Part shown: positions 14,829 through 60,358 of the stretch, piece by piece
Layout: every line of letters starts with the position of its first letter
How positions within the stretch are numbered: position 1 is the first letter of the stretch
Assembly (NCBI GenBank): GCA_964019425.1
Contig: OZ025801.1
Span: 62,001-126,000, forward strand
DNA length: 64,000 nucleotides
Reading direction: 5' to 3'
Source of the DNA: Flectonema sp. DT1601
Lineage: Eukaryota
Notes under the pieces: model-generated
Told to the model about the DNA's origin: nothing
Database searches by the model: none
Seen by the model: only the letters and a program-made list of their open reading frames with translations
Translations under genes and position numbers: made by a program

Positions 14829-14935
14829 AACCTTAAAAAGTAGTTACCCCAGGTGATTAGAAATTACGTGGCTTTTAGAACTACCAGCCAGTACTAACAG
14901 AAATGCTTGCTTGCGGGTAGGGAAGTAAGGGAAAA

Positions 14936-22016: not shown

Positions 22017-22568
22017 TTACGAAGATGTCATTTGCATGGCGAGTTGTCTCGTTAGATCTTTTTGTGATTCTATCTCAGCCTTCAGGCTGTCGATTGTATT
22101 TTGTAACATTCCCTTCTCCGTTACAAAGCTGTCAGACTTGGCGGCAGAGAGAGCCTTCTGTTTGCTGTGTTCGAGTTCTCGAATGTGAAGAGCAGCCTCA
22201 ACATCATCGAGGATCTCTTGTTGATATTGTTGAAGTCTTGATTCACGAGAAGCGAGAGGTTCTCTGGTGACGATCGATTTTAATTCATCGAAGTCACTCT
22301 TGTCGAGTACGACGCCAGGGAATTCAGACTCACGTTGAAATTGTTGGATAGCTGATTCCTTGTCGGTGGCGAGCTCTCTTTCGAAATCAAGTTTTTGTTT
22401 TTTGAGTTGGTCCTCCCCTTCTGTTTTATTGATTTCGTTGTCAACCTTTTGATCTTCCACAGACCGCATCGATTCAACAGCTCTGAGGATCTCATCGACA
22501 CTCTGAGAGATATCTTCAGTTGTAGTGAAGACTTCTTCGTCAATAGTTGTATTTGAGGGACGGAACAT
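22017..22568 (-). CDS. Coiled-coil hypothetical protein (5' end uncertain)
   Basis: 183-aa E/Q/K-rich ORF. A candidate 29-nt GTGAGT..CACAG intron just upstream keeps the frame open. Confidence 0.65.
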   Translation of the reverse strand: MFRPSNTTIDEEVFTTTEDISQSVDEILRAVESMRSVEDQKVDNEINKTEGEDQLKKQKLDFERELATDKESAIQQFQRESEFPGVVLDKSDFDELKSIVTREPLASRESRLQQYQQEILDDVEAALHIRELEHSKQKALSAAKSDSFVTEKGMLQNTIDSLKAEIESQKDLTRQLAMQMTSS

Positions 22569-24388
22569 CTTATGAAGAAATGACGTCTGTGAAAGAAGAT
22601 AAACACATCACTCACTTCCTTTAATGTGGTGGAGTCTGACTGTTGTTGAATTGAAGAATATAAATATTTACATCACCCAAGTCAGTCTTAATAATCACGT
22701 CGTACAATATGTTGCAAAGAAGAGAGAAAAAAAACAACAACAAAAGATCTTAACTTTTTTTTTTTCCCCTCTCTAATCTCTTTCTTGCATTTGTCCTTTG
22801 AGCACCCATGACAAAGAAGAAAGAGAAAAAAGGACAACCACAACGCATACTTCTTCTTCTTCTTCTTTTTTTTTTTTTTGTTTGCTTGAAATAAAGCAGG
22901 CAGATATCTACATCTGACAAGCAGAACTAAAGAGAGTGTGAGTAATTCCATACATGTGTTGCCTGATTAGTTAACCTTACATGTGACTGCTGTGATACTC
23001 CAACACAACACCAATCACAGAGAGGGGACTAATAAACAGCTCTTGAGATGTGTTGAAAAAATACTTTTTTTTTTTTTTTTTTGTTGAATTATTGCTACTC
23101 TAGAAGAAAATTCTAAATTACTACTTTTTTTTTTTTTTTTTTTTCTTTCTAATCTAAACAGAGATACAAACATACACAAAAAACTATAAATTATATATCC
23201 GGGAAGGATACTTGCAGGTCTTTGGGAAGGGAAGGGGAAGATGTGTTTTTAACATTTGTCCACATAACGAAACGGAAGAAAATCAACAACCTGGTGATTA
23301 GTTGTGTAGTAATGATCGTACCCTTTGAATATAGCGTAGGATTATTGGTGGCAGTGAATTTCTTTTCACCAGGAAAACCAGTCAGGTAACAATTTCTTTT
23401 TTTTTTTTTTGCTGTCAAAACATCTGCGAGGGCCATTATAACTCAACAAGTGTGCCCACCGTAGAGCTGCAGTGCTTTAAGGAACATTTCTTTTTTATAA
23501 ACCCCCGAAGGTACGCATCTTACACAACACACACACACAATTAGAATTAATTACGACAAAACAATCAGGAAGAAAAGAGTGCTCATTCCACAACAGGATT
23601 GGGATAGGAGAAGAAAACTAAAGTAAACCAACGATGTGATGACATCATCTAAGAGGGTGCTGACAAAAGACAACTTGAAAATACTTGCTTGTGCACTTAA
23701 TCGCTATATATCGGTTTTGCAATAATAAAAGAATGAGAGGTTAACAGGAGGTCAGGTTCACATAATTATTTGATACTTTTTGCTGCTCCTTATTGACCAA
23801 ACTCGGGGAACTTTTAAAAAAAAAAAGCTGAAAATCTTGCCAACAAAGACAACAACCTTACTTAGAGAGAAGTGCGAGAAGTGCAAAAACATCAAAAGAA
23901 AACGGTGGCGGTGGTGGATTAATAATTTGAGAAAAGGGAAATAACTACACTACTGGTCCCTATGAAGAGAAAGCGAATTTGACTCAAATCGATTCAGAAA
24001 CAGGGAGGGGGGTGAAACTTTGACAATGTAAAAACAGTAACAACTTTAGGAATTAAAAACAAACGTTAATATCAAAGTACTTGACTGTAGGAACAGGGGG
24101 GGGAAATCGCCTTTATTCATTCTACGAAAATAAAAAGAAAGAAAGCAGAACCAGTTTGCTCTAAATATTGCTGTCGGGTTAGGACCGTGAAAGAGGACAA
24201 TATGTAGTATTATATAATAACTTCTCCTTACTTTCACATTATCGATTCCTCCATCGGTGTGGGGAATGGTCAGTCAACTTAGACACCAGTCGCAGTTAAA
24301 GAGTTCCTTTTTTTTTGCTTCCGACGTTTTCGATTAATTAAATAATAAATTCCCTCCTTCCGTTGTTGGAATTCCTGAGTGAGAAGAA

Positions 24389-27300
24389 TTATGAAATACT
24401 TCGATTGTTGTTATTCATCATTCTCGACACAGATTGAGTTACAATAGAAACCACGTCTACCGACTGCGATCTCTGTGATTTCACAAATCTCGGAGATGGA
24501 GATGGCTGTGCGGAGTTCCTCTTTCCTGTTGGAGTACTACAACGAGTTGAAGACCTTCCAGCAGGTCCTCCAATAGACGGAGAACCTTTCCTAACTTTTG
24601 ATAATGTTCTAAAAGCAGTAGTTGTAGAATGTTGTAATCTCGGAGTGTGTGTCGCAGGATTCCCGAGATGGACTTCAACAGTTTGAATTCCTTCGCGACG
24701 TTTCTTTGAAGGAATGCCGCAGGCTGACTTCAAATCTTTAACTTCACAAAGAGAATCAACAGAACCAGTAGAGACCTCTCTGGTAGTACTAACGTTATCG
24801 AGGATTGTCTTGTCTTTCATCATCAACTTCTCTCCCAGGCGGTCCATTTCACTTGAGATTCTGGTCGTTGTTTGCGCCACCTCACTCAATGGCGCTCCAA
24901 CAATTGATTGACTTGAGTTTTTCGGTTTTCCTTTTGGTTCCCAAGTTTCAATTAGTTTTTTTGGAGTGCCATAAGCGATATCCAGAGAGGTGTTGAACCT
25001 GTTGGGATGGTTTATTAGGAATACAAAGTCTACTAACAGACTAACAGTTTATTAATATAAATTCCATACCAAGAACAAGGTGTTTCAAGAGGGAGAGGAA
25101 CTGGCGCGCCATCAACTACAGTCGTCTCAATGTCATCAACAGAAGGTATGGAAGGAGGTTGAGGTGGAGGTGCCTCACTCCCGCAGGGTATTTCTATTTC
25201 ATAATCACACATTGGACTCGGACATGCCGGGCCAGACATCTCCATCTCCATGGAAGGTACCTGTTTTATTATTTTATACGGATCCCCAACAATATGATTC
25301 GTGTCACTTACAGAAAAAGATAAACATACCGGAGGTAGAAACGGTGTGTGTGGTTTGTCTACAGCTCCCTCAATAGGAGGATGATAGCTCGTGATGGGAC
25401 CATTAAACCCATTCAGACCGTGAAGGACGTCATATCTCTCAAGATCTCGATGAGTGCTGAGAGGGACAACATCAAATATCGATCCGGTTGGGGACGGAAC
25501 TGCATTTAGTAACGCTGCGTGTTGAGCGAGAGCTTGCATTGGGTCTACAGGAAGCGGGGGAGGTATTGCAGCAATAGGAAGCGGGGGAGGAATTGATGCC
25601 TCGCGTACGTGAAGAACCGACTCTCGAACGTCGAGATCTCTCTGACGTCTATCTAGTTGTTCTTGCATTCCAACAGTTTTCTCGTAAAGTCTCCTCGCAG
25701 CTTCCAATACGAGATCCGTGTCACTTCTCGCTTCAGATAGAATCCGACTTGTCTCTTGAATGGCGGTGTTGGTTTCTAATTTCTGTTGCGCGGCTTTTTT
25801 TGACAGCTCTTCAGCTGCGAGGTCTGCTTTCAGTTGAGTGAGCTCTCGAAGTGTGTCGGACTCACGTTGTTTGACTACTTCACCCCAAGCAATCCATTCC
25901 ATCTCTTGTCCTTTTACTTTCATTGCCAAAGACTCCAACTGTCGTTCCTTTTCCGCGAGAGCGAGACGCTCCCTGTCGAGGTACTCCTGATTCTGGGCTG
26001 CAGCACGTTTGTCTTCACCGTCGCGAGATTGGTGGAGGCGATCTTCAGCCGACTGGAGTGCAGCCTCGCGTTTTGTGAGGGTGGCAATCCATCTCTCGAT
26101 AGCAACCTTCCGTTTTTCGAGTGACTTCTCTCTTTCCTGAAGGTTGTGTTCTATGGCGCCGACACGCTGAAGCTCTGCCTGGAGGAGTGACTCGTGTTGC
26201 TGAAGAACCTTCTCGCGGTCACCTGAGGCCTCACCGGCATCGAGTCTGCGCTGAAGTTCCACGCAGCGGACCTCAGAGTTCGTAGCCCGTGCTATGGCTT
26301 CGTTAAGACGTTGGGCGGAGTCGGCAAGTTGTTGTTGTAAATTATTGTCCTCACCAACACCTCGTTGGTGTACTCTTTGGTCCCACTCTCTAGACATTTT
26401 CTCTCGCTCTTCGATGCGAGCCTGTAGCACCGCTAGTTTCGCATCCCTGTCGTGAAGTTTCGCCTCTTTGTCGTGAAGCTGATCTTTTAGTTGTTGAATC
26501 CTTGATCGCTGATCTTCACCATCACCTAATGCTCTCTTTCTTTTGTTGTCAAGTTCGTCTTCTCGTTGGTGCAGATCGAACTCCAGCTGCTTTAGTTTTC
26601 TGTGCTGCGCTTCTATCTGACTATCTCTATCAGATAATATATCTTCCTGTCGTCTTATTTGCTCTTCTCGCGATCGAACAATGTCTTCTCTATCGCGTAA
26701 ACCCGACTCCCGTTCGCGTAACTTTTCTTCGCGGGAGTTGAGGTCTTCTTCGCGTTTTGAAAGATTCGAGAGGTGCCGGTTCGCATCATTCATTTGGAGC
26801 ATTCGGTTCTGCAGGTCGCGATCACGGGACATGAGATCTTCTTCCCGTGACCCGAGAAGGGCAGCACGGTCGGCTATTTCCTTCTCTCGCGATGCGAAGT
26901 CCTCTTCCCTGGAAGCCAACTGCGCTAACTTGTCGTTGAAATCCCTTTCCTGTTGGGAGGAGTGTCCAAACATCTGTTTCGCTTCTTGCTCAAGAGTAGT
27001 AATTCGAAGCTGATGCTCTGCGAGAGTTCGCTCCCCCTCAGACAGCTTCCGCTCCCTCTCAGAAAGGTTCCGCTCCCTCTCAGAAAGGTTTTTCTGGTCC
27101 TGTTCGAGTTTCTGGTGTTGGGAATCCAAGTGCTTCATATTTTCTTCTTTCATAGAAAGTAGTTTTTCTCGATCGTGGATTTGCTTCGCAAAAAGTTCTC
27201 TCTCTGTCGCCATCTTTGCCTCCGCTGCCGCCAGGTCGGTGATCTTCTGAGCGAGTTCACGTTCTCTGTCGTAAGTTTCGAATTGATACTTCTCAGGGCG

Positions 27301-28623
27301 GGTGAGCTGCTCTCTTCTGAAGTCCTCGCGTTGTAGGTCGAGTTCGCGAAGTGCTGCCGCGAGTTTTCTTTCATTTGACTGAAGAGAGAATTCTCTCTCA
27401 GAAACATCCTCCAGTTTAATTGTTATCTTCCTCCAGTAGCGGAGGATGATATCAGTTCGAGAGTTTACTTCAAGTTCTTGAATGTTAATACGCTGATCTG
27501 ATTCTTGAGATCTGAAAGCGTGTCTGGCGCGAGTATCAGTTGATGCCTGTTCTCTCGCCCCCATCGCAGCTTCCCTGGCCATAAGCTGATCATTTTCATT
27601 ATTAACACTTGAGATGGTACTTTCAACTTCGATGTCCTTTTTATGTTTTATCTTTGTCGTCGTGAGTTCTCGAAGTAGTATCCGACCTTCCCTATCGCGA
27701 GCATCTTCGTCAATTTGACGGCGGAGGTCTGCATCACTTCTGAATTGACGAAGAGATTCCTCCCATCCGCGAAGCTCAGCCTCCTTTCTAATGAGAGACT
27801 CTTCTCTGTCTCTGTGAACGAAATCCATCGACTGCTGTGAAGCTGATCTCGCTGTTGGAAACTGTTGTTGATTATGTAAGGCTGATTCTAGTCTGCGGAG
27901 AGCCAGTTCTCGTCTGTTGAGTTCATCTTCCTTTTCTGATGACTTCTTTGGATCCGAAGCCATTCTTGTCATTCGAGAAAACTCCTGTTCGCGTTCCATG
28001 AGATCCCGTTCGCGTTCTCTCAAACTCTGTAGAGCTCTTTCATCAGGCAGGGATTGTAGAGAATGTTGGAGGTGGTGGAGATGAGCTTCTCTATCAGCAA
28101 GTTGGCGCTCTTTTTCAGAAATTGCAGCTTCGCGATTTTTCGTTTCTCTGACAGTCGTAACGGGCTCGTGAAGTTGATTAGCAACAGAAATGCGAGAAGT
28201 TGATGTTTCGAGGACGGGATCATCGCGTTCATCAGGCAAGTCGAGTGGACTAGAAAATTCCGGGATGACTCTGGCGTGTCTCGGTGGGGAGTAGTGAACT
28301 GCCCGCTGACGATTTCTTCCACTTTGGTGAGGAACTACTTCAATATCATCAAATGTCTCAGTGCTGGCCATACTGGGAGTTGGTGTAGGTCCAGCATTTG
28401 TGATAGATAACATTACTTGACTGTAGGCTGTCCAATCAACAAAGTCTCCTCCACCCATCGCTTTCCAAATACCACTTACAACTTCTTCCTGTCCACTTAA
28501 TCCCAACTCTTTTAATATACTTCGTAATCCACTCAAGTCGAGAACGATATTGTCTGCACTACTCTCGAAACCATACCTCTCAAATGCCCTCCAAAGCAGC
28601 TCTTTGTGACCACCTGGAGTCAT
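24389..28623 (-). CDS. Large coiled-coil protein with degenerate N-terminal EF-hand-like pair; exons 28623-25330, 25260-25070, 24998-24389
   Basis: 1196-aa ORF rich in E/R/Q/L. It contains an in-frame 69-nt intron (GTATGT..AAAACAG). A second intron (GTATGG..CCAACAG) joins it in frame to the 24389-24889 ORF. Confidence 0.85.
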
Positions 28624-30157
28624 GTCATGTGCCGTGGGCGGGCTTGTTGTGTTGTAATACCCTTCCCTGTGTGAATAATATTGTTGATGGTCTCTATTAC
28701 TTGATGGCTGTTTAAGTGAACCTCCCGCGGGACGGATAATTAAATTAAATTCCTGTCGAAACTTAATTAGAATTAATTAGACGCATCTTATCTCAATTAT
28801 ATTTTTTATCGATTTTCGTCAACCTGCACCAACCAAAAAAAAGAACCACCCCAGATTCCTTTTTTTTTTCTTAACAATTCTGTTTATGTAGCTCGCAAAA
28901 CACGACACGGTGCCGTGAGTAAAGGAAAAAAAAAAAGGGAAGGGAAATGAAGGAGAAATTAAAAAAAAAAGAGGGGAAAAAAAAAGGTGGGACTGATATA
29001 CTACGGATGTGAGTGACAAGCCCAACACGTCAATTAACAAGCACTCGCCCAGATTCACAGAGCAGAGGCAATCACGTAAATCGAACAACAGTTCCCGTTG
29101 GGAATTCAACAACTTTCAAGAGGAGGAGGGCGAGGAGGGTGAAAACGATATTTTATATAATTTTTTTTTTAAAAACTTTTTTCGCGGAGAGCATCAAAGA
29201 AAGAAAAAAGACAGCGCAAGGAGGAATAAGTAAAATGGGATTCATTATTTATTTATTTTTATTTGCGTGGGAGGGTATACATTACAAGAGGCGCGCATTG
29301 GCATAGACAGGATCGGAGCTACAAGACTACTGCTCAAAATCTTTTCCTCTGGTAGAAGAAGAGGATTTTTTAGAGTGTTAGTCCTTTTCCGCTTTCCTTT
29401 TTTTAAATTTTATTCTGTTAAGCTCCTTGACGCTGTAAAGAAAACTAAAAAGGGGGGAAGGGCAGGGGAAAATACCCCTCCAAGCGCACAAAAAATATGC
29501 GTCAGACGCAGGGTGCCACCATTCAAGAAAGAACAGTGGATGCCCACAAATAAGAGGTTATTATGACTTCTGCCTAATTTTATTTTTTTTCTTTCTGCAT
29601 TTTTTGTCGCTTGCAAAGGGGTGGAAGCGGGAAAGGATACTGCGAGAAGGGAACCCTGCGCCAGTCAAGTCTGCTTCTGTGTCTTTGTACCGTCCAGACA
29701 GGGAGGGGTACCCCCTTTGCGACATCGAGGACAGATAGACTTAAGAAACTACACTTTGTTTGCCAGCGCAGGGGGGGAACTACAAGGGGAGAGATTTCCT
29801 CTTTTCTTTTTTCTTTTTTTTTTTCTTTTCTTTTTTTTTCCCCCACCCCGATCGCTTGCTCTGCGAAACCGAAATAAAAAAGGAACTTTTCTTTTTGTAC
29901 TTTCGTTTTTTTTTTTTTTTTTTTTGACACTAAGGATTAAAGTGAAAGAACTCAGCAACATAATAACACTAACAATAAAAGGCAGTAATTGCCGCTCCTA
30001 ATGGCATTCGAAGGGTCGCCTGAAGGCTGCAACAGTTAACGCAAACGAAATAAATTAACAAACAGCGTGACGGCTAAGTATTGTTACTCTTTATCTCACT
30101 CTTTTTCTTCTTTTTTCTTTTATTTCCCTTCTTTAGCCTCGATAAACTGAAGTCGAC

Positions 30158-35337: not shown

Positions 35338-35687
35338 CTAAAAAATACCACCCCTTCCTGATACACTCAGGAATGTCCTTTGATGTTCTTCCTTTATTTT
35401 TATCAAGATAGAAAAAAATTTGATTTTGGGGAGACTTCCATTTGTCTCTACTTCAGAAACATCTGGTCGAAACATGCCCAGGATCCTACTGTTATAATCC
35501 AAAGAGGTATAAACTCTATGGAACACTGTTTTTAGTTCACTATTTTCATTCAAAAATTCTTCAGCGCTAACGTTAGCTTCAGCTAGTGCTTTTCCTGTAG
35601 TTTCAGCAATAACAACGATTCCATCGGATACATTCCAGTCAGCCATTTTGTGTTGTGTATGTCAATAAAGTACAGAAAGTAGCTTTA
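35338..35687 (-). pseudogene. Processed (retroposed) mRNA copy with relic spliced leader
   Basis: Minus strand TAAAGCTAC--TTTCTGTACTTTATTG (35687-35663) is followed not by GT but by a 16-nt UTR and the ATG of a 102-codon ORF (MADWNVSDG...). Confidence 0.8.
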
Positions 35688-35689: not shown

Positions 35690-36374
35690 TTGATGTATTT
35701 TTCTCTCAAGGTTTCTATACACCAATTCGCATATAAATAATACATGATGTGCTGTCGCCTTTCCAAGTTTACAGAAAAAGCACAGCTCGTTCAGTCCTTT
35801 GATTATCAGAGATCTGCAATGTCCCACTCTAAAGCGTGACATTAGTACTTCCTCTGGTCGTGTTAGAGCTTCTATGTACGGAGGGTGTCTTACCTCTCCT
35901 GGTCCAATCCAGTTCTCCCGTTTTCTCCGCTTGTGGAACGTCATCAATGTTCATGTCAAGTTGAGTGGGCAGTTGTTTAATAATAACATCTTCGTGAGGT
36001 GGATCTTCCTTCAGGCCTGCAGCGAATTTCGCCAGTTGGTCCGCTACTTCGTTGTACCGCACGTTTCTGTGTGCCGGTACATACTGCATGTTGACTTGGA
36101 TTCCCTTCTTCTCCAATTTCATTGCCAACTTCCAGATCTTTTTGTTCATTGGGGACCTTTGTTTATATGGCCCTTGTTCCAATGCCTGCATGACTGACAT
36201 CGAATCAGTCAACAGGTGCGTCGTTGTTGTTAGAGATTCATGTTCATCCTCCGCCACCTGAACTAAATTTTCCAACGCCAGTTTCACTGCAATCTGCTCG
36301 GTCCTATAAGAGGAACCCGCTACTGGTATTTTATATCCAAGTAGACGCATCTTGCTTTCGTTAACCATGACCAC
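35690..36374 (-). mobile_element. Degraded LINE 3' fragment (RNase H + CCHC finger)
   Basis: SSYRTEQIAVKLAL, LLTDSMS, QYVPAHRNVRYNEVADQLAK, then frameshifted RFRVGH..CFFC..HVLFIC; parallels the intact element next to it. Confidence 0.85.
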
Positions 36375-36544
36375 AGCGAGTCTGTCTGTATCGAAAAGAA
36401 CAAAAACAAAGAGTCTGGAAGCACATATGAGTGTAACTCAATTTAAAAAAAAAGTTATAAAAGTTTTATAAAAAAAGTTAAATAAAAAAAGTTTTTTTTA
36501 TTTATTAAATAAAAAAAAAGTTTCTTTTGGCGGGACCACACAAA

Positions 36545-39500
36545 ATGCCTCCACGCGGCGGTCTCGGACGGCAGAGACCGACTAAATTTTGCAACCAGAT
36601 GGGAGGAGAAATACTCTCACGGAAGGAAAGGAACCAGAAAGCACACACAGAGAACGGGAACGGTAAGAAAGACAGGAAGACGAGCGTAGATACGAAGGAA
36701 CGAGACGAGTTGAGGGAGAGACTCGCACGGGATGGCCTAAGAAGGCTGGATCGGGACGAAGACAGGAAGAAGGACGAGAAGGTCCTCAAGAAAAAACAGG
36801 CAGAGCAGGAAGAAGAGAAGAACGAACTGCTGCAACAACAAGAGCTCCTCTGCAAACAACAGAGTGAGCTAGAAGTTAACTTCCAGAAGAAACAGGAAGA
36901 ATTATTCCAAAAGCAACAACAGCTTGAGGAAGTACTGACTAACCATCAACAGCAGCAACTTGTCAACCAGAAACAACTGGACCATCAACAGCAACAAAAC
37001 CAGGAACATCTGCATCAACAACAGAAGGCTCTTACTCAGTACGAAGATGAACTCTGTCTGAAGCAACAACAGCAAGAACAGCAACTTAGCCATCAAGTCA
37101 AAAAGCAGCAGGAAATTCAACAGCAGCAGCAACAGCAACTTGATCAACAAGTCCAACAACAGCAGGATAAGCATATACAACAGCAACAACAACTTGAGCA
37201 TCAAGTCCAACAACAACATCAAAACCAACAACATAGCCAAGAGTTGTTAAACCAACAACAACAAGAACTGCTACAATATAAAGCAGACCTACAACAGAAG
37301 CAGGAACAAATCCTGATCCAACAACAGCAGCTCGAACAGCAGCACAGCAAGGAGAAGGCTGTCGAGGATGAGTCTCTCCGAAGAAGAAGATGCCAACTCG
37401 AAGAAGACCAACGCCAACAACAACAAGAACAGTCCAGGATTCAACAGAATCTGCAACTGCAACAGGTTAGCCTGGAGGAAAAACAGCAGCTGCTTCAACA
37501 TCAACTGAATGTGGAGTTGGAAAAGGGCAAACTGGACCAGCAGCAACAACAACAGAGACGGGAAGAAATCAAAAAGCAGGAAGATGACCTTGAGCATCAA
37601 CGACTCCAACTACAACGCCAGCAGGAGGACGAGATGGAGAAGGGTAGGAAGGAACTCCAGTGTCTCAGGAACAAGCTAGACATGGAGTTCGAACAACAGA
37701 AGCTGCGTAGCCATCAACTCCAACAACAACAAGAAAAGGAGAAGGAACAAGGGAGGAAGGAACTGCTCCAACTTCAACGGGAGCTTGGAAAGGAGTTCGA
37801 ACAACAGCAACAAGAAGACCAGAAGTCAAAGCTAGATCTGGAACTTCAAGAAGGAAAACTGCGACAACAGCAACAGAAGCTCCAACTCCAACAAAGCAGC
37901 CTCCGTCAGCAAACGCATGCAGTAAGCCAACCTCCGGTTTACTACATGCAGCACCAGCCTTATGCACCGATGCATCAAAGGCAACCGTACCCGCCGGTAC
38001 TTCCGCAACAACAGGGAATTGAACAACTCCGACTGGAGCTCCAGAAAGAGAGAGAAGAGAAGGGTGAGCTGAGGAAGTTGCTCATGGAACTCCAGACTCA
38101 GCTGAAAGAACTGAGACAGGAGTTGGCCTCATCGAGAGCGCAGAGAAGCGAAGAAGTGAATGAGGTCGTAGTAGCCCCGAGCCAACCACCACTGGGAATT
38201 GCCAACTTAGTGAACGGTCTGACCTACTCTCGCTCCTACGGCCTCACCACTGATGAGTCAAAGGTTAGATCAGCTGTACAGAGGAACTGCACATCCGAGT
38301 GGGAATCACTGGAAAAGAAAGCGACGCAGTCGATGAAAGCTGTTGAAAAAGCCAGACGTCTCTGGGAGAAAACCAACAAGAAGGAGAGGGAAGTGTTGAA
38401 CTCCTGGAGCCTGAGGGAAGTTGATTGGAACATTCCGGTCACGAAGTTTGAGGAGGTATCGAAAGGGAATCAAGGAGTAGCCCTTGCGACGCCTTCGGAG
38501 GCAAGAGATCTTCTGGGGATGAAGCCGGAGGTTCCTGCATGGAAAACGTGCAGCGTGGTAACGCTGGACCAAGTGAATGGACAAGGAAGAAGGGAGCACG
38601 TGCTATTATCGAGCAAGGATGGAAACAAGGTACATCGCATCTTCATTCATGACCTGGGTGAGGCTGCTCTACCAAAGGGTAAGCGGGGTATTAAATCGGT
38701 GAAGGCAATAGTGACCGCTCCTAAAAGAAGGTGGAAGGATGATAAGTGGCTTGAGTTAGCGAGTAAGCCTGAGCACCTCATCACAAAAGAAATGAAGGAC
38801 ACACCCGGCTTCATGGAAGCGTACAACTTCAGGGTAACGAAGAGTACGGTGTCGGCTGTCATCCGACTGAGGAAATCCGGGGCGGTGGAACTGCTAAGAA
38901 CTTCCGGCAAAGATGGGAGGTTCTTGTGGATCCAAGACGAAGGGGAGGCTCCGAAGGATACAGTTATTTGGCTTCAGGACGAGTGCTCTTTGAAGGAGGC
39001 AGTTGAACACTCTGATTCCTTGGAATCGTTGGGATTAGTCGAAAACCCTAAAGGTTTTGGTATCAGAGTTTCACCGGAGCTGGAAGATGTAACCAGGGAA
39101 AAACTGGGAATCCCTGCAAAGCTCCCTGAATTAGAAATCTCGGGAATTCCGTTAGATGTACTTCCCCGTGAAGCGGTAGCGCTGCTGGCGAAGGATGGGT
39201 GGCATGTGAGAGCAACCGTGGATGGAGTAAGGACTGGATACAGATGGATGAGGGTGCGTGCTGAAGTGCCGGATGACGACACGGTATTAATCGACGGTAG
39301 GGCATGTACGGTTGAGGTAGTTCAAAGACAAGATCGTAAGAAGCGCCAAGCTGCCAGAGAGGTGGATGTGAAGGAGAAAACTCAGCCAACGTCAACTGCG
39401 GAGAGCACACCGGAAAAAGGCCTTACTCCGCCGGAGAAGAGACGTGATCCAACAGAGGGGGAGGCCTCTAATCGTTGCTACTTGCGAGCAGAATTCTTAT

Positions 39501-49260: not shown

Positions 49261-49527
49261 AACCAACGATTCTAAAGCTAGTTTCTGTTAAATATATTTC
49301 AGTAATTTGCAGCATCCCAAAGCACCGTTTCACCAAGCATCGAATTTTTCGATGCGTTCCCATAATGTAAATCCAACATTATGATTATTAGTTTCTTAAT
49401 ACCAATTCTTAATTCACACCCATTTATCAGATTTCGAACCCCGTTTCGCGCATACCTTTTTAACGAATTTTAAATTGATGCCTCGCTCCAAGGGTGGGGC
49501 GGGGTTATTGTTTGGGAATCTGGAGAA

Positions 49528-49977
49528 TTGGAAATCCTGGGAGGGGCATGGCCATATGGTGAGAGTCGCCACATTAACATTCTTGAAGCTGATGCTCTGG
49601 CCAGGACTCTGGATGGAATCAGCCATGCTGACCACCTGGACATCTGGGTAGACAATACCTCGGTATGTGGAGCATTCAGGAAAAGAATGTGTGTAAGATC
49701 GCATGATTTGAACTTTTTTGTTATAAAAGCAGTGGAGAGAATTTTGTTTTTTAAGTGTTCTTTTTCTTTAAAATGGGTGAGTACGAAGTACAACCCAGCA
49801 GATATTCCATCTAGGGAAGCAATATCTTCGGCTACCAGGCAGAAGGTAGAACTTGCGCTGGGGGAATTCTTTAACTCGCGGCGGGGTGGTGGAGCCGGCA
49901 ACCCAACGAACAGAACTGGGACCGGCAGCGGCGTCCAGCCCATCCATGGCGGACCCACCACAACCCCAACGCGGTGA
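49528..49977 (+). pseudogene. RNase H remnant of DIRS/VIPER type
   Basis: GAW...HINILEADAL...IWVDNTSV...LKWVSTKYNPADIPSR. Confidence 0.85.
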
Positions 49978-50420
49978 CCTACTTGCATGGGTAGTCCACC
50001 AAGTTGACCATTGTTTAGTTTATTGATATCACCGAGTGATTTGTTTCTCATGTTTCCTTTCTTCCAAACAGGTGCCCAAAGGATGCAAGATAATTACTGT
50101 TAAATATATTTCAGTAATTTGCAGCATCCCAAAGCACCGTTTCACCAAGCATCGAATTTTTCGATGCGTTCCCATAATGTAAATCCAACATTATGATTAT
50201 TAGTTTCTTAATACCAATTCTTAATTCACAGAATTCGATAGAGTGGGAAGTAACGGACTGGGAGCTTTTGGCTCCTGCCCTATTCCCGATGTAAACTTTC
50301 TTTTTATTTTTTTTTTTTTAACAGGCCCAGAGGGCGACAATGACTGTTGCTGACCAAGGAATAATATTCAAATGAATTTTCGTTTCAAAGAAACGAACAG
50401 AATTAAGAGAGAGGCAGAGA

Positions 50421-50453
<33 letters not shown>

Positions 50454-50689
50454 AAAAAAAAAAAAAAAATATGAAGAGGAAATAATCAAACATGAAAAAA
50501 ATAAAAAAAAAAAAATAAAATATAAATAAAAAACGTTGTATGAAAAAGGAAAAAAAAGAAGAAAAAAAAAAAAAAAGACCAGAAAAGGAAAGAGAAAATG
50601 AAAAGGTATAATATTATTGTGGGGATATGAGGATAGCAGGGAGATGCTCTTTTTTTTTTTTTTTTTTTTATTTATTATTTAAAAAAAAG

Positions 50690-50784
50690 GAAACAATCAG
50701 TTTAGCGTCTCGATCGGGACGGAAAATAGAAATTTAATCGACATAGTCGATCGATAGAAAAAAAAACAATGATAACATTGTTTA

Positions 50785-50819
<35 letters not shown>

Positions 50820-53800
50820 CTTTTAATTATTTTAAAGAAAAAACAATCAGTTTAGCGTCTTGACCAGGACGGAAAATAGAAAGTGATCGACATAGTCGAT
50901 CGATAAAAAAACAATGATAACATTGTTTATTCTTTTTTTTTTTTTTTTAAATTCTTTTTATTTATTTTTTAAAGAAAAAAAAAACGGAAAATAAAAATTA
51001 GTCGACAAAGTCGAACGATAAAAAAAAAACAATGATAACATTGTTTATTCTTTTTTTTTTTTGTTTTTTTTTTGTATTCTTTTTTATTAATTTTGAAAAA
51101 AAACAATCAGTTTAGCGTCTTGACCAGGACGGAAAATAGAAAGTAATCGACATAGTCGATCGATAAAAAAACAATGATAACATTGTTTAATCTTTTTTTT
51201 TTTTTTAAATTCTTTTTATTTATTTTTTAAAGAAAAAAAACGGAAAATAGAAATTAGTCGACAAAGTCGAACGGTAAAAAAACAATGATAACATTGTTTA
51301 TTCTTTTTTTTTATTTTTTTTATATTTTTTTTAATTAATTTTGAAAAAAAAAACAATCAGTTTAGCGTCTTGACCAGGACGGAAAATAGAAAGCGATCGA
51401 CATAGTCGATCGATAAGAAAACAATGATAATATTGTTTATTCTTTTTTTTTTATTTTAAATTCTTTTTATTTATTTTTTAAAGAAAAAAAAAACGGAAAA
51501 TAGAAATTAGTCGACAAAGTCGAACGATAAAAAAAAAACAATGATAACATTGTTTATTCTTTTTTTTGTATTTTTTTTATATTCTTTTTTATTAATTTTG
51601 AAAAAAAAATAAAAAACAATCAGTTTAGCGTCTTGACCAGGACGGAAAATAGAAAGTAATCGACATAGTCGATCGATAAAAAAAACAATGATAACATTGT
51701 TTATTCTTTTTTTTTTTTTTTTTTTTAAATTCTTTTTATTTATTTTTTAAAAAGAAAAAAAAAACGGAAAATAGAAATTAGTCAACAAAGTCGAACGATT
51801 AAAAAAAAAACAATGATAACATTGTTTATTCTTTTTTTTTTATTTTTTTTAAATTCTTTTTTATTAATTTTGAAAAAAAAACAATCAGTTTAGCGTCTTG
51901 ACCAGGACGGAAAATAGAAAGTGATCGACATTGCTCTTCAGGGAGGGCCTTAGCCAAAAGCTAACAGTCCAAATCTCACCTGGAAATTCAACTCAGTCCT
52001 TGTCAGTTTTGGCATCAAACTTGTAATGGTTTAATCATTACAGGTTATTTACTGAAATATTTGTTCTAAAAGTTGCTAAGTATTTCTCACTTAGAAATTT
52101 TTTATTTTTTTATTTTCAGCTTAATTAGCTACAAATTGTTTCTACTAAGTGTTTCTCACTTAGATTTTTTTTTTTGCTTTTCAGCTCCTTAAAAGCTGCT
52201 AAGTGTTTCTGCTAAGTGTTTCTCACTTAGAATTTTATTGTTATGTTCGTTTTCTATCCCTTCTCCTATCCCTTTTGTTCAAAATAAGCGGGAGGAAATT
52301 CTCTCATTCACGCTAAGATGCACTCTGAACTTTGATTTTTTGATCTGAGTGTGAGGGAATGACCTGTTAGTGCATTGGGCATAGGCTGGGCTGCAGTTTA
52401 GATGTCTTAGGTGTTAATAGGGGGTTCCTCTTAGCATTTTTCTTTGTTCCCACCTTATGATTTTCTTGAAGAAAAAAAATAGAAGTCATAATGGTGCTTC
52501 CCTCTGGAAGGGTTGTAAGCCATGGTGTCCAACTAGATTAAAGGACAAGTCTGGGATAATCCCTGCCAGAGGGGCGAGTATTCTACCATGGTTGAAATAC
52601 TCTGGCAACTGATCTTCAATTTTATGTTGTTTGTTAGCTGCTGGTGTAATTAAATCATGTGTTGATACTTGCATTTGTTTATTTGTTATCTTTTACTACA
52701 ATAACGCTTGCCTATATCTTTTCTTTTTATTCCCTATCTGTTCTGATCTGTTACTTCATTTGTCTTGTTTAACTTCAGTTATATGCATTTTACTTTTTAT
52801 TGTTTCCCATCTACTTTTTATTTTCTATTAGTTCTGGTCAGAAACTCCTGGGCAGCAAGAAGGAAAGTAGTTAAGTACTTCTGGGTGTTTGGCATCACCC
52901 CCCATAGTGAGCAAGTACAACAGGTAGCATTGGTAGTCTGTTGATCCTGAGTGATCCCAGCTACAGTTTTGTTTTTCTTTCTTTTTTTTAGAAGAAGATC
53001 AGGACATCCAAGCACTGCTGGATAGTTGCTGAATGCAGGGCCTGCCTGTGGCATTATAATAACAGGCTAAGTCATTTGTAGTTCATAGTTTACCTTTGAT
53101 TTTATAACTTCACACAGGGTACTATGAACGATGAGAGATCCAGTGGGATCACTCAGGGTCTAGTAGAGACCACCAATGTTGTGCGTTGATAGGCAAGGTG
53201 ACCAACCTTGACATTCTTTCTTTTCTCTCCTGTTGTGACAAACACAAAATACACACACAGCTTACAGTGTGTTCTTTGTGTATGTTTTCTTCAGGTGTGA
53301 GTAGTTTTTTTGTTCTTGCTCTTCAGGGAGGGCCTTAGCCAAAAGCTAACAGTCCAAATCTCACCTGGAAATTCAACTCCGTCGATCGATAAAAAAACAA
53401 TGATAACATTGTTTATTCTTTTTTTTTATTTTAAATTCTTTTTATTTATTTTTTAAAGAAAAAAAAAGGAAAATAGAAATTAGTCGACAAAGTCGAACGA
53501 TGAAAAAAAACAATGATAACATTGTTTATTCTTTTTTTTATTTTTTTTTTTTATTCTTTTTTATTAATTTTGAAAAAAAAAAACAATCAGTTTAGCGTCT
53601 TGACCAGGACGGAAAATAGAAAGTAATCGACATAGTCGATCGATAAGAAAACAATGATAACATTGTTTATTCTTTTTTTTTTTATTTTAAATTCTTTTTA
53701 TTTATTTTTTAAAGAAAAAAACTGAAAATAGAAATTAGTCGACAAAGTCGAACGATAAAAAAAACAATGATAACATTGTTTATTCTTTTTTTATTTTTTT

Positions 53801-54018
53801 TTATATTCTTTTTTATTAATTTTGAAAAAAAAAAAACAATCAGTTTAGCGTCTTGACCAGGACGGAGAATAGAAAGTAATCGACATAGTCGATCGATAAA
53901 AAAAACAATGATAACATTGTTTATTCTTTTTTTTTTATTTTAAAATCTTTTTATTTATTTTTTAAAGAAAAAAACTGAAAATAGAAATTAGTCGACAAAG
54001 TCGAACGATAAAAAAAAA
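50690..54018. repeat. AT-rich dimeric satellite (~240-255-bp period) with internal palindromes; interrupted at 51931-53380
   Basis: Recurring ACAATCAGTTTAGCGTCTTGACCAGGACGGAAAATAG, ATCGACATAGTCGAT, AAACAATGATAACATTGTTT; variable homopolymers. Confidence 0.92.
51931..53379. mobile_element. 1385-bp non-coding unit plus 64-bp terminal direct repeat, no TSD
   Basis: Identical 64-mers at 51931-51994 and 53316-53379; interrupts the satellite motif GATCGACA(TA)GTCGATCG. Confidence 0.85.
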
Positions 54019-54111
54019 AGTTTATTGATATCACCGAGTGATTTGTTTCTCATGTTTCCTTTCTTCCAAACAGGTGCCCAAAGGATGCAAGATAATTACT
54101 GTACTTTATTG

Positions 54112-54702
54112 TTTTTTCCCATCCCATTCAGTGGCGTAAATTGCGCGGCTTCGTCAAGAAACCAAGCGGATTTTCACTCCTTTTACAAAAAAAATCGGCG
54201 GCCGCAAGTGTACGCGTCAGTGCGTGACTTGCGCTTCTTGCGTCTTCGCAAGGAAAAAGAGAGATTAAGAGTAGGAGTGTAGGTCGAAGTTGAATTGCAG
54301 TTTAGGCCCTGTTTACTTTCTCCTTTCCCCTCCCCCAGTTTTTTCCCATCCCATTCAGTGGCGTAAATTGCGCGGCTTCGTCAAGAAACCAAGCGGATTT
54401 TCACTCCTTTTACAAAAAAAATCGGCGGCCGCAAGTGTACGCGTCAGTGCGTGACTTGCGCTTCTTGCGTCTTCGCAAGGAAAAAGAGAGATTAAGAGTA
54501 GGAGTGTAGGTCGAAGTTGAATTGCAGTTTAGGCCCTGTTTACTTTCTCCTTTCCCCTCCCCCAGTTTTTTCCCATCCCATTCAGTGGCGTAAATTGCGC
54601 GGCTTCGTCAAGAAACCAAGCGGATTTTCACTCCTTTTACAAAAAAAATCGGCGGCCGCAAGTGTACGCGTCAGTGCGTGACTTGCGCTTCTTGCGTCTT
54701 CG
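54112..54702 (+). repeat. 227-bp tandem repeat (2.6 copies: 54112, 54339, 54566); complete units end in polypyrimidine tract + CAG
   Basis: Exact repeats; unit end TTTACTTTCTCCTTTCCCCTCCCCCAG. Confidence 0.95.
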
Positions 54703-54719
54703 AAGTCTTCGAAGTCTTC

Positions 54720-55735
54720 GAAGTCGCAGAAGTCGCAGAAGTCGCAGAAGTCGCAGAAGTCGCAGAAGTCGCAGAAGTCGCAGAAGTCGCAGAAGTCGCA
54801 GAAGTCGCAGAAGTCGCAGAAGTCGCAGAAGTCGCAGAAGTCGCAGAAGTCGCAGAAGTCGCAGAAGTCGCAGAAGTCGCAGAAGTCGCAGAAGTCGCAG
54901 AAGTCGCAGAAGTCGCAGAAGTCGCAGAAGTCGCAGAAGTCGCAGAAGTCGCAGAAGTCGCAGAAGTCGCAGAAGTCGCAGAAGTCGCAGAAGTCGCAGA
55001 AGTCGCAGAAGTCGCAGAAGTCGCAGAAGTCGCAGAAGTCGCAGAAGTCGCAGAAGTCGCAGAAGTCGCAGAAGTCGCAGAAGTCGCAGAAGTCGCAGAA
55101 GTCGCAGAAGTCGCAGAAGTCGCAGAAGTCGCAGAAGTCGCAGAAGTCGCAGAAGTCGCAGAAGTCGCAGAAGTCGCAGAAGTCGCAGAAGTCGCAGAAG
55201 TCGCAGAAGTCGCAGAAGTCGCAGAAGTCGCAGAAGTCGCAGAAGTCGCAGAAGTCGCAGAAGTCGCAGAAGTCGCAGAAGTCGCAGAAGTCGCAGAAGT
55301 CGCAGAAGTCGCAGAAGTCGCAGAAGTCGCAGAAGTCGCAGAAGTCGCAGAAGTCGCAGAAGTCGCAGAAGTCGCAGAAGTCGCAGAAGTCGCAGAAGTC
55401 GCAGAAGTCGCAGAAGTCGCAGAAGTCGCAGAAGTCGCAGAAGTCGCAGAAGTCGCAGAAGTCGCAGAAGTCGCAGAAGTCGCAGAAGTCGCAGAAGTCG
55501 CAGAAGTCGCAGAAGTCGCAGAAGTCGCAGAAGTCGCAGAAGTCGCAGAAGTCGCAGAAGTCGCAGAAGTCGCAGAAGTCGCAGAAGTCGCAGAAGTCGC
55601 AGAAGTCGCAGAAGTCGCAGAAGTCGCAGAAGTCGCAGAAGTCGCAGAAGTCGCAGAAGTCGCAGAAGTCGCAGAAGTCGCAGAAGTCGCAGAAGTCGCA
55701 GAAGTCGCAGAAGTCGCAGAAGTCGCAGAAGTCGC
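54720..55735. repeat. Perfect 9-bp tandem repeat (GAAGTCGCA)n, ~113 copies
   Basis: Directly visible; preceded by GAAGTCTTC variants. Confidence 0.98.
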
Positions 55736-55857
55736 CCCCAAACCCCCTTACATTTACTTTTTTCCACTCTATTTTGTATCTCGGCTCCATTCCATCGCCG
55801 GAAAAATCAGCCACACCGGGGATTGAACTGGTGCCTGTAAATCACTTTTTAAAAAAG

Positions 55858-55890
<33 letters not shown>

Positions 55891-55903
55891 TTAATTAAAT
55901 AAA

Positions 55904-58679
55904 GGAGAATTCTCCGTTGCCTACATAAAAAAAAGTTTTTTCTCCGTTGCCTGTCACCTTAACTTTTTTTTCTCCGTTGCCTGCACCCAAAAAGTTTTTT
56001 CGCTGTTGTGAACAACTCTTTTTTTTTTTTCTCTGTTGGGTACCAGCACTTTTTTTTTTTCTCTAAAAAAAAATTTTTTTTCTGGAAAAAAAAAAAAAAA
56101 AAAAAAAAAGAAAAAAGAAATAAGAAAAAAAATCAGAGGTAGAATCTTCACATCTTCTCACATTCTTGACAGTGTTTCCTTGTTAGACGAAAAGTTTTAT
56201 AAAGCAAGAATAGAAAACACTATAAATGAATCAGATGATGACCTTGCATCGAAAAATATTAAAGCTCATCAGATGATGAACTTGAATCACACTTCTTTCT
56301 CTTTCCGGATATCCGGTTTCTCCTAGTCGATGTATCGACAGTCTTCTTGGGGGCCGACTTCTTCGCTGATTTCTTGGGGGCCGACTTCTTGGGGGCCGAT
56401 TTCTTAGGGGCTGACTTCTTAGGGGCTGACTTCTTCGGGGCCGACTTCTCGTGTAAGGGGTTTTTACACGTAGTCTTATTGTGGCCCACCTTACCACAAC
56501 GACTACACAAGTTCTTTCCCTCCCCTTTGGAAGGAATCCTCTTCGTGGGGGCACCCTTCGTTGTTGGCGGTAACAGTTCAGTCTTCGCCGACTGAAACTG
56601 ATACAGCCCAACTGGCCGTACTGGGTCGTCATACGCCTTTCGTAAGGCTCCCAAACGAAAGCAGGTCGCTACGCCGTCGCTCGTAGTGCCACTTCTGCAC
56701 AATGCTGACAATGCTGTTAAGCATCCCCAACACATTCTTGTCCCTGGCTGAAGAGATAACATTGTTAAACCCTTCAGCCAGGTTGTTCGTACTTTGATTG
56801 TACGTCCTAGAGCGGATTGCACCGCGAGCCCAAGTCTCAGGCTCCTTTTCATCCAGGTATTCGTGGAGTACTTCAAGCTCGTTCTCCCCCGCAGACTCAC
56901 CAAGAGCATCAAACATGGGTAGGAACCTGTATGAAGGTGCCGTACACAGATGTTTGAACCTACCAAACATCTCCTTGCTGAACTTGGCCTTGATGTTTCG
57001 ACCCATGTGTTGTGTGCATTTGAGGGCAATCACATCGTTGTAATCCCCACGAAGCACCGACAGTAGGCCCTTGTCCTGATCGGCCATAAGGCCAAACCCT
57101 TCGCCCAAAAACTCCGGAACCTTCACCGCCGACTCCAGCTTCCCAAGGAAGTACTTCCACCCTTCGGCGTCTTCATTGCCTATCAAGGCGAAACCCACAG
57201 GGAGTTGACTTCCCAGTGGGTCCATTGCAACAAATGTAAGCAATGTCCCCAAGTAATGTGCTCGTAAGAAGCACCCATCAACAACCCCAAATCCCCCCGG
57301 ACATGCACCTACACCCTCCAGCGATGCCCCCAAAGCAAGGAAAAAGGACTTAAACCTTCCACCCTCTTCTTTTATGTCCCACTGGGTACCGGGGTTTTGT
57401 TCCGCCAGTGAGGTGAACCAGGCCTGTAACCAGGCAAATCCCTCATGGGGGTCACCATTGATCTCTTTATCGGCCTCTCCGAGGGCCCGGTATACAGTAT
57501 CCTTCCCTACTGTTATGCCGCAAGACTTTAAGTCTTGTACAAGGTGGGACTTTTTATATTTTGTACCCAACTCCTTGTATTTTGCCAGGGAAAGGTAGGC
57601 TATTGTGGTCTTGAGCCCGTACACCCTCCCCTCCCCAGGGTTGCAAGCGTCCATATGCCGCAGCTGTGACACCGTCACAGTTCTCTCTTCACAACTCCCT
57701 GTAGCGCACACCCTCCACTCACATGAGTCGGATGTGCAATGGAACGATATCTGGTTCTCACGCTTTTGTCTGCTAAACCTCCTTCCAGTGGAGCAGCAGG
57801 CGAGGGTGACGCTTGCCAGGAGTGCACTCTTGCTAGGGAAGACACGTCCCAGGGTTGGTGTCGGAACATTGAACACCGGCACGTTTATGGTCGGGACAGG
57901 TGTAACAGTATCCTCAGATGCGATCACAGGTGCAGTCTGCGGGGAGTCCATGTTTCCAGGCATTTGGTAGTAGGTAGGTGTTGAGTAGTTATTATCTGGA
58001 AACGTAGAGTAAAAAAACAAACAAACTATCAAGTGGACCTAGGTCCAGAACAGCAAGAAAAAAATGAGAATCCTAAAACCACTACCAAAATTTATTTTCA
58101 GCCACAAAGTTTCCATGAACACCCTCTCACCTTAAGCGCACACGGATGTTGAGATAACGTTTGTACGATGTTCATCTGGCTTGACGAGATTAGCAAAGAC
58201 AAGTACTCACGGAAAGGTTGGGTTGTTCGTCAGGTCTTGATAGTGTTCTCAGCCTCTGGGAGTTTTACTACAAGTGCATGCAAAGAACGGTATGTGTGCA
58301 GGGCTGGGTCACCTTACAGAGAACTGTTGTCCTCTTACACGTCATTCCAACCGAATTTCAAGGCCAAGACACCTGCGAGTTACAGACAGCCTGGTCGCAA
58401 GCGACACTCCTGTTTCTGACCGGGTTATCAGGGTATCTAACTCATGCAAGCATGAGAGCTTTTTTAAGGCTACCTTAAATTATCAAGAGCGCAGTACTGC
58501 CCGAAGGGTTCCCGCGTGTCAAGATGCATTTGCGTGTACTGAGCAGAAGTTCCAGAAGGAAGATTACTTTTATCATTTCCCAAGTCATCACATCCTTAAC
58601 CGTTTGTGTTATTAGCTTTCAATCAATCCATCAGATGAGTGTATGGTATCTAACTAACTAACCAGGTAGACAGGTGCAC

Positions 58680-58710
<31 letters not shown>

Positions 58711-58933
58711 AAAAGGGAAAAAAGGTCAAGTGACACACAACAGAGAAAAATAAATATAGGTGGCACACAACAGCGAAAAATAAATATAGGTGGCACACAA
58801 CAGCGAAAAAAAAGTTTAGGTGGCACACAACAGCGAAAAAAAAAAAGAAAAAAAAACACAACGGAGAAAAATTCTTTTAGGTGGACTACAACGGAGAAAA
58901 ATAAAGTTTTGGGGTAGCAACGGAGAATTTTCC
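55904..58933 (-). mobile_element. Mutator-like (MULE) DNA transposon
   Basis: TIRs GGAGAATTCTCCGTTGC / GCAACGGAGAATTTTCC with subterminal repeats; 9-bp TSD TTAAATAAA (55895-55903, 58934-58942). Confidence 0.95.
56259..57963 (-). pseudogene. MULE transposase, frameshifted at ~56635
   Basis: C-x4-C.WRV, VDGCFL, LPVGFAL, LMADQDKGL, CTQHM, STNNLAEGFN; the CSRCGKVGHNKTTC knuckle and KKSAP repeats lie in another frame. Confidence 0.88.
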
Positions 58934-59070
58934 TTAAATAAATAACCACGAGTTCTCTTAGAATACGTTTCATCTTTTAGAAACCCCATATCTCCTACTG
59001 TTTCATTAGTTTCATTTATTCCCTCCCCAGCCCCACTTAGAAAACTTTGTTACCCATCTGCCTTTGGCTT

Positions 59071-59101: not shown

Positions 59102-60031
59102 GGGTACCTGTCGCGCAAGGGGCACTATAGACTCCGGCGCCATAAACCACTTGTATAGTTTCCTTATCTCTCCCCGTATGTTAATCAACCCCTGTAGAAT
59201 GTTACTGCCAATCAGTTTACTCTCCCTGTCAATACTCCTCTCCCTGCTTTCCTCTCATTGTACACCCACAGATCCACCGCACCACAACTCTTCTAATCAG
59301 CCATCTACATGCTGCATCAACAAACAAGGCCACGGGTTAAATATTATACCGCAACCGTGGATTCTCTCGGCGGAAGGGGTACCGGGCAGTCCTGGTACGT
59401 TCATGGAATTTCGATAAAGTGGGAAGTAACGGACTGGGAGCTTTTGGCTCCTGCCCTATTCCCGATGTAAACTTTCTTTTTATTTTTATTTTTTTTAACA
59501 GGCCCAAAGGGCGACAATGATGGTTGCTGACCAAGGAATGACCATCTTCATCCATTTTGTATTGTTAAACTAATTAAGACAAAATTAAGAATTAAACTAC
59601 TTAGAATAAGTGATTAAACATATGAAACTGACGTCGGGGTGATGTTACATCTTCAAGAGGTCGTTTAGACAAAACTTTGAAACGCACCGAGGCAAGAGCG
59701 GTGCAACAAGCCAAATAAACAAGCAAACAATTCGCGAACCTCAAGAAGAAACACCCAGGGTGGGTTGGGTGGGAAAAAGTTTAAAGTTTTAAGTAAATAA
59801 GCAAAATTTGCTAAGGAAAGGAATATAATGTTAAATGTTTAGCGAATAGATAAACAAACGGCTTCCAGAGCACAGAGCAAATCATCGCAACAGAGCCGTT
59901 CAGTCCAAGCATTGCACAGAACCCGAAGTATTAAGTTCAGAGTGCATTTTAGTTAAGGGAGGGATATTTTTCTTTCCGTTCCGATAGGAGCGGGAAGAGA
60001 GAATGTAATAAAAGATTTTCGACGTACCAGA

Positions 60032-60114
60032 GCAGGCATAGCCGAGTGGTTATGGTCGTCGACTATAAATCGCTTGGGTAGCCGTGGTCACGGGTTCAAT
60101 TCTCGGTCACGGCA
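60032..60114 (+). pseudogene. Degenerate tRNA-like sequence (Ser/Leu-type long variable arm) or SINE head
   Basis: A box TAGCCGAGTGG, B box GGTTCAATTC, T-run after; acceptor and anticodon stems mispaired. Confidence 0.7.
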
Positions 60115-60261
60115 GATTTTTCGCGTTTTTCCTTCAGGAAACTGAAGGACTAAAAAGACACAGAAATGGACTCAGTGATCATTCCCTGAGTAAACTGAGA
60201 GAATAATATTCAAATGAATTTTCGTTTCAAAGAAACGAACAGAATTAAGAGAGAGGCAGAG

Positions 60262-60293
<32 letters not shown>

Positions 60294-60358
60294 GAAAAAA
60301 AAAAAAAAAAATGAAGAGGAAATAATCAAACATGAAAAAAAAAAAAAAATATATATAT

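Follow-up and report, generated by a model that had tools for sequence, protein, structure and literature searches.

Layout of the window and of the repeat-RNA copy

The stretch of DNA analysed, referred to below as the window, comprises 64,000 nucleotides of contig OZ025801.1 from Flectonema sp. DT1601, and the features that concern us are collected in Table 1. It opens with an array of linked 5S rRNA and spliced leader (SL) genes. The 25 SL exons of this array are all identical, are free of the 2-base deletion found in the SL copies outside it, and belong to genes none of which carries an insertion (0 of 25). A 39-base SL linked to 5S is described for D. papillatum (PMC10161547). The sequence of the leader also resembles those of diplonemids, and we take the host to be a member of this group. 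In 15185–15832 a short hairpin (15185–15225) marks the end of the array and is followed by a 28S rRNA fragment. Other 28S rRNA pieces were located at 48370–48576 and 48653–48743, and 48356–48514 is 94% similar to 15561–15720.

Several neighbouring features belong to mobile elements or are small genes. On the plus strand, 36509–43800 holds an apparently intact LINE, with a Q/E-rich first frame of 1,066 codons and an APE-RT-RNase H frame of 1,295 codons; a separate RNase H fragment occupies 35829–36437 on the minus strand. Two tRNA genes with a GTA anticodon (43907–43989 and 44124–44206, plus strand) both bear introns, which differ from each other. From 44200 to 54018 the window is a patchwork of inverted and direct duplicates with 90–98% identity, including AT-rich arrays with a period of about 260 bp. 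A MULE DNA transposon with inverted ends spans 55904–58933 (transposase at 56629–58038, minus strand, PF10551), and its 9-base target duplication (55895–55903 and 58934–58942) begins 6 bases behind the poly(A) tail of the copy described next.

Table 1. Positions of the leader copies, the inserted element and the repeat-RNA copy in the window.
Feature	Positions	Strand	Description
SL-5S array	1–15055		25 copies of a 603-bp unit: 5S rRNA and 39-base SL exon, then GT
Second SL-headed copy	35663–35686	minus	24 SL bases, 2 missing at 22–23; then 17 bases and a 102-codon frame
A20-GA	49239–49260	plus	Real 5' flank of the retrocopy, perhaps its left target duplication
SL exon bases 1–30, less 2 bases (20–21)	49261–49288	plus	Starts exactly at SL base 1, ends CTGT
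Repeat A1	49289–49418	plus	Left end of the inserted element of tyrosine-recombinase (YR) type; 130/130 bases identical to A2
RNase H remnant	49474–49977	plus	C-terminal part of the RT/RH frame; rest of the element deleted
Repeat B1	50017–50100	plus	Ends CTGT; 84/84 bases identical to B2
Repeat A2	50101–50230	plus	B1/A2 join is the presumed circle junction
Other repeats between A2 and B2	50231–54018		3.8 kb; presumed later insertions (self-BLAST, tandem repeats)
Repeat B2	54019–54102	plus	Right end of the element; ends CTGT; pyrimidine tract and AG at 54072
SL exon bases 27–39	54099–54111	plus	Joined to unit 1 at the acceptor position
227-bp unit 1	54112–54338	plus	Closes with 32 bases of pyrimidine tract and CAG acceptor
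227-bp unit 2	54339–54565	plus	Identical to unit 1
Unit 3, first 137 bases	54566–54702	plus	Matches units 1 and 2 for 137 bases, diverges at 54703
9-mer array	54703–55735	plus	Two variant 9-mers, 112 perfect GAAGTCGCA (54720–55727), one partial copy
Unique 3' tail	55736–55850	plus	About 115 bases
Poly(A) tail	55851–55890	plus	A6-G-A31 to 55888, then GA; possible right target duplication

The locus represents an RNA that was trans-spliced and polyadenylated before being copied into DNA; an upstream acceptor was used and two inner acceptors were kept. The SL exon of this retrocopy lacks the flanks of an SL gene. A first-pass annotation of the DNA had already read the stretch as a genomic copy of an SL-capped, polyadenylated RNA with acceptors in its internal units, and the SL junction, the tail and the acceptors support it. 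As it had observed, units 2 and 3 are preceded by a polypyrimidine tract and CAG: the 30 bases before the final AG of the unit contain 93% pyrimidines and no other AG, which makes this the best of the 18 AGs of the unit (the runner-up, at unit position 19, has 87% pyrimidines). Unit 1 is preceded, again as observed, by the end of the SL, whose last G occupies the position of the acceptor G. Its estimates of about 113 9-mer repeats and a tail of about 110 nt ahead of an A tail agree with the counts in Table 1. The plus strand of this copy is indeed devoid of ATG, but this absence is not significant because only about 2.4 would be expected in the 343 non-redundant bases (P about 0.1).

The 227-bp unit could be assigned to no known class of RNA. 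The scan of 53900–56000 returned no Rfam family at a meaningful score and no tRNA, the fold of the unit is not significant (z −1.84; 10 of 200 shuffles did equally well), and neither a C/D box nor a hammerhead core was seen in it by eye. The 3' tail has no stable fold either (z −0.63). On its minus strand the tail contains a tRNA-like piece, which was set aside because it had been picked by eye and scored 33 against a best of 32 in 1,000 random sequences. A tRNA-like remnant with a T-loop and a T run was noticed at 60030–60125 (plus strand), where Rfam and ARAGORN call none, and a 34-base stretch of the tail (55800–55835, minus strand) weakly resembles it.

The 9-mer GAAGTCGCA differs by a single base from the reverse complement of the unit 3 end, and two intermediate 9-mers adjoin it. 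This likeness, together with the intermediates, suggests that the array was likely born by fold-back and slippage. A reading in which the minus strand is the functional one would draw on a T tract with an acceptor (the A tail as seen on that strand), an ATG at 55790 and a frame of 402 codons, a repeat of Asp-Phe-Cys, which is open; yet the stop-free 9-mer is open in all six frames, the frame has no Pfam match, another ATG upstream, at 55795, is not in its frame, and the SL junction identifies the RNA strand as plus. We regard this reading as extremely unlikely.

A leader in two pieces around an element with split repeats

The first-pass annotation had set the 5' boundary of the copy at 54099. 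This is wrong: the copy starts at 49261, and 54019–54102 is the B repeat of an inserted element. The 5' part of the SL that is missing from the stub at 54099 lies 4.8 kb upstream of it; the two halves share CTGT (SL bases 27–30) and, when rejoined, provide 37 of the 39 SL bases. Outside the array, SL bases 1–20 occur a single time, on the strand and side expected for the copy at 54099. The 13-mer of the stub occurs twice in the 97,600 strand positions outside the array, both times at SL-headed copies, for a shuffle expectation of 0.11 with one mismatch allowed. Since SL bases 1–30 stand behind A20-GA at 49261 and the halves can be rejoined, we infer that the copy began with a whole SL and that 4.8 kb were inserted later. 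It is very probable that the 39-base leader of the retrocopy was split in two by this later-inserted element.

Two earlier proposals have to be revised in this light. Tandem acceptors had been thought to offset a loss of 5' sequence in every cycle, but this copy was complete and carried an entire SL; its stub results from the later insertion into the SL, so the premise of 5' loss fails for this copy. The (A)nGA motif, proposed as a target duplication, does flank both true ends (A20-GA and A31-GA), but is weak as a duplication. The motif has low information, the A-rich stretch of the 5' flank recurs at 50398–50480 and 60240–60330 with a different continuation, and the 3' flank continues unlike these other copies of the 5' flank.

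The second SL-headed copy of the window (at 35686, minus strand) is followed by a frame that has no Pfam match. Both SL copies outside the array miss 2 bases near SL positions 20–23, where the exons of the array are intact.

The inserted element has the order A1, RNase H, B1–A2, B2. Its RNase H frame ends 40 bases before B1, and CTGT is found at the left end, at the inner B1–A2 junction and at the right end, with no target duplication beyond these four bases. The resemblance of the circle junction to the SL extends beyond the CTGT core. One feature goes against the layout of a YR element: A2 and B2 are not adjacent but 3.8 kb apart, and the intervening DNA consists of pieces of 59400–60357, two AT-rich arrays and an inverted copy of 46804–48076. 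A 10-base repeat (54089–54098 and 55887–55897) was considered as the target duplication, with the region read as a template-switch patchwork, and dropped, as it corresponds to the end of the B repeat; the match between the end of B2 and the 3' flank, which includes one indel, has a chance rate of 76 in 20,000 and was left as coincidence.

This arrangement recalls two known elements of kinetoplastids. VIPER and TATE carry A1 at the 5' end and B1-A2-B2 at the 3' end, have overlapping YR and RT/RH frames and make no target duplication (PMC6681497, PMC12278014). TATE of L. braziliensis is site-specific for the telomeric repeat (PMC6681497). The window element shares with them the split direct repeats, the position of RT/RH as the last frame before B1 and the lack of a target duplication, its YR frame being presumed. 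It differs from them in its target, SL exon bases 27–30, and in that the copy is deleted down to RNase H, with the gag-like first frame and the presumed YR frame lost. On this layout, the inserted element is likely a deleted VIPER/TATE-like YR retrotransposon.

SIRE acts as a donor of splice acceptors. In Trypanosoma cruzi it corresponds to the A2–B2 part of VIPER (PMC6681497). The B repeat of the window element likewise contains a pyrimidine tract and AG; the 227-bp unit, in contrast, is unrelated to the A and B repeats of the element.

Relatives of the element and a second leader junction

Homologues of the RNase H remnant were found in 11 of 208 candidates, the best with 65–75% identity, and the remnant matches the C-terminus of RT/RH proteins of 881–1,140 aa. 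Among the seven relatives scanned, a weak RT match was obtained in five and a weak RT-RNase H match in two. A wider search returned 58 proteins, many of them from D. papillatum, the species from which the named homologues of the element's proteins come; no named VIPER or TATE protein was among the matches. Distant homologues carry RT and Dam methylase, as in DIRS elements. In a tree built with DIPPA and further rows, which contained no named VIPER or TATE references, the window element falls in a 6-row clade with the family P0001 (97/94). For D. papillatum, TATE-like and SLACS frames are listed without targets in the searched text of PMC10161547. The proteins P0001–P0105 represent numerous RT/RH families of DIRS order from diplonemid assemblies, many of them with near-identical full-length copies that suggest recent activity.

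Pfam matched no recombinase domain in any of the 19 relatives scanned. The +1 frame of the N-terminal halves is compatible with a recombinase-like motif in 22 of 28 relatives (60 of 280 shuffles), and in 21 of these 22 the motif stands 258–305 residues before the RT core. It is absent from six of the 28, including all five D. papillatum gene models tested, and such motifs were not found in the searched portion of the PMC6681497 supplements. The recombinase gene of the family is thus presumed rather than read.

A second junction with the SL was recovered from P0022, a protein of 604 residues in the P0001 cluster that matches every SL gene copy of the window. P0022 follows P0001 for 568 residues (98.6%) and continues with 17 unrelated residues, NY and then CTLLVQSQHPSLLGIFS, which from C on is the end of the SL exon and the SL intron, up to the same stop. 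Before this C, the reading is NY-CTLL at the B2–SL join of the window and NY in P0022, as opposed to SF-CTLL in the SL gene. By its protein sequence, this truncated relative appears to read out of a B repeat of its own and into a genuine SL RNA gene, with the join at the base used in the window. The residues before NY differ between P0022 and the window element, and their RNase H domains are 72% identical, which points to two subfamilies that each inserted at this base, in separate events: in a true SL gene for P0022 and in a retrocopy for the window element. P0022 may stem from the same assembly and would then represent a second event, not a second species.

The contigs of the P0022 cluster were also compared. 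P0022 lies on a contig of 285,401 bases, a size shared by the contig of three full-length members, and 11 of the 15 listed members (28 in all), several of them full length, share a contig size with another member, a pattern that insertions in an array would produce. The members of three sister clusters appear dispersed: of those listed, 12 of 12, 14 of 15 and 12 of 15 are on contigs of distinct size. An SL junction was seen in one of 129 related proteins, among which only read-through truncations can show one. No more SL read-through peptides were present among short proteins, and among representatives only one unrelated repeat match was obtained.

These two insertions, on which the claim rests, suggest that this class of YR element probably targets the spliced leader specifically. 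It could instead have a loose preference for a CTGT core with nearby similarity and have matched the SL twice through the abundance of SL sequences. Such a preference would accord with the spread of the sister clusters over many large contigs, with the uninterrupted SL genes of the window and with the requirement of DIRS-type elements for just a short shared core (PMC3266345). It agrees poorly with two subfamilies that have different B repeats and join at the same SL base, with a circle junction that resembles the SL beyond the core, and with the tiny share of all CTGT sites that SL exons make up. We consider it quite unlikely.

The junctions also bear on the integrity of the sequence. Were the 44–54-kb patchwork a library or assembly chimera, its inverted and shuffled duplicates at 90–98% identity and its rRNA pieces would be understandable. 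However, the junctions agree base for base with a known element layout, and P0022 echoes them; a contig from a public run (X2) covers 54020–54102 and ends exactly where B1 and B2 part; and scattered 28S pieces are common in D. papillatum (PMC10161547). An artefact of this kind is highly improbable.

An insertion that spares the SL exon end and the donor could also yield giant leaders that are spliced onto host RNAs, and the locus would then be the cDNA of a chimera, a prospect that we rate as very doubtful. In such a history, the element would have entered an SL RNA gene first, the long exon would have been trans-spliced onto the repeat RNA, and the chimera would have been reverse-transcribed. 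The insertion leaves SL bases 27–39 and the intron intact, once the later 3.8 kb is discounted the deleted element measures only about 1 kb, and the final sequence would be identical. SL RNAs, however, are short molecules that require a folded small RNP for their use, and insertion into DNA after retroposition is simpler; we hold this order of events to be very unlikely.

Origin of the locus and its meaning

Taken together, the evidence leads us to favour, with a probability of about 0.65 for the whole account, a deleted split-repeat YR element that inserted at the CTGT of an SL-headed RNA copy and that targets the SL. At the parent locus, 227-bp units with an acceptor at the end of each would have followed one another head-to-tail. 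Its transcript would have been trans-spliced at one of these acceptors and have received a poly(A) tail behind the 9-mer array. The whole 1.8-kb RNA, its origin as RNA shown by the SL junction and the tail, would then have been copied into an A-rich site, presumably by a LINE reverse transcriptase, and the window contains an intact APE-RT-RNase H LINE (39710–43597) that could supply one. Integration of DIRS-type elements is thought to be a recombination of the circle junction with an identical short site (PMC3266345). By a presumed reaction of this type, a circle with the junction B-CTGT-A would have recombined with the SL of the copy at bases 27–30, to give SL5'-CTGT-A1 on the left and B2-CTGT-SL3' on the right, the structure present in the window. 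The normal targets would be SL RNA genes, and the SL-headed retrocopy a stray target. Other repeats would later have accumulated between A2 and B2, and the MULE would have landed behind the tail.

The repeat RNA has also been searched for elsewhere. With 54099–54720 as query, two of six listed public runs contained 0.34 of the 29 words; no RNA run was among the holders, which has no bearing on expression. A contig from run X1 bridges the unit-to-unit junction over 151 bases without a difference, and a contig from X2 holds a whole 233-base variant of the unit, with a 6-base insertion and 2 other letters (depth 2–3 in both). Since these contigs come from two studies, head-to-tail units and a variant exist beyond this copy or strain, a result equally compatible with a parent tandem repeat and with a mobile family. 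When 54020–54345 was compared with four runs, X3 and X6 gave no match; the lack of a contig over 54103–54110, and of any loose end, is not informative. A control region (18100–29750) gave in X1, X2, X4 and X5 no piece longer than 36 bases among the best 26 of 63 rows, so the host seems a mere trace in these runs, which had been chosen by the unit. Exact-pattern scans found neither unit nor tail (0 and 0) in metagenome contigs and no match (0) in viral contigs.

The RNA of SL, units, array and tail might represent a promoter-free, non-autonomous retroposon family that is re-capped at its inner acceptors after read-through transcription, and such a family can coexist with the YR insertion. The internal acceptors are intact, the units and 9-mers are perfect, as in a young copy, and the unit exists head-to-tail and as a variant in the two runs. 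Precedents come from Hydra, in which transposon RNAs are trans-spliced (PMC12220107), and from dinoflagellates, in which SL-headed cDNAs are repeatedly recycled (PMC6050394). The 64-kb window, however, holds a single copy, and this copy has a full SL with no 5' loss seen. Each inner re-capping would drop one unit (1,785, 1,558 and 1,331 bases), with no evident way to regain units. The tail has only chance matches of 11–12 bases in the window and none to the one LINE compared, and an ordinary SL-headed copy 14 kb away implies that SL-headed copies need no special mechanism. We find a self-recapping family unlikely. Rather than a proven mobile family, the retrocopy most likely represents a single processing event, in which the transcript of a tandem repeat was copied. 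Pending knowledge of its parent and copy number, this copy is of modest interest.

Dinoflagellates are well known for their SL-tagged retrocopies (PMC6050394, citing Slamovits and Keeling 2008). Like those retrogenes, the window copy is a genomic copy of a trans-spliced RNA with the leader at its 5' end; unlike them, it derives from a non-coding repeat RNA with internal acceptors, belongs to a euglenozoan and has no tandem leader relics.

In the literature searched, a fixed insertion position in SL RNA genes is otherwise described only for non-LTR retrotransposons. Nematodes possess an SL-specific non-LTR element, NeSL. The CRE clade (SLACS, CZAR, CRE1 and CRE2) likewise consists of SL-specific non-LTR retrotransposons (PMC12278014). 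Members of the CRE clade are of LINE type, with a restriction-like endonuclease, a poly(A) tail and a target duplication, whereas the window element has no A tail at its end and instead combines split repeats with an RT/RH of DIRS type and a shared core of 4 bases. The searched text of PMC12278014 and PMC8869645 names only CRE-clade or other non-LTR elements as targeting the SL, and no SL-targeting YR element was found there or in the searched text of PMC8061765, PMC4006747, PMC12220107 and PMC12014239, although an earlier mention, for example in Repbase, is possible. The one site-specific YR element of Euglenozoa in this literature is TATE, at telomeric repeats.

If our account is true, a YR element would have arrived at the same safe target, the SL, independently of the CRE clade and by a different chemistry, and its recombinase would be one whose target site (SL bases 27–30) can be read from the sequence. 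For annotation, the possibility arises that a short SL stub in such a genome is one half of a split leader and not the head of a 5'-truncated cDNA. Every SL-headed retrocopy is predicted to be a stray landing site for the element, which would explain the dispersed copies and could be counted in any diplonemid assembly.
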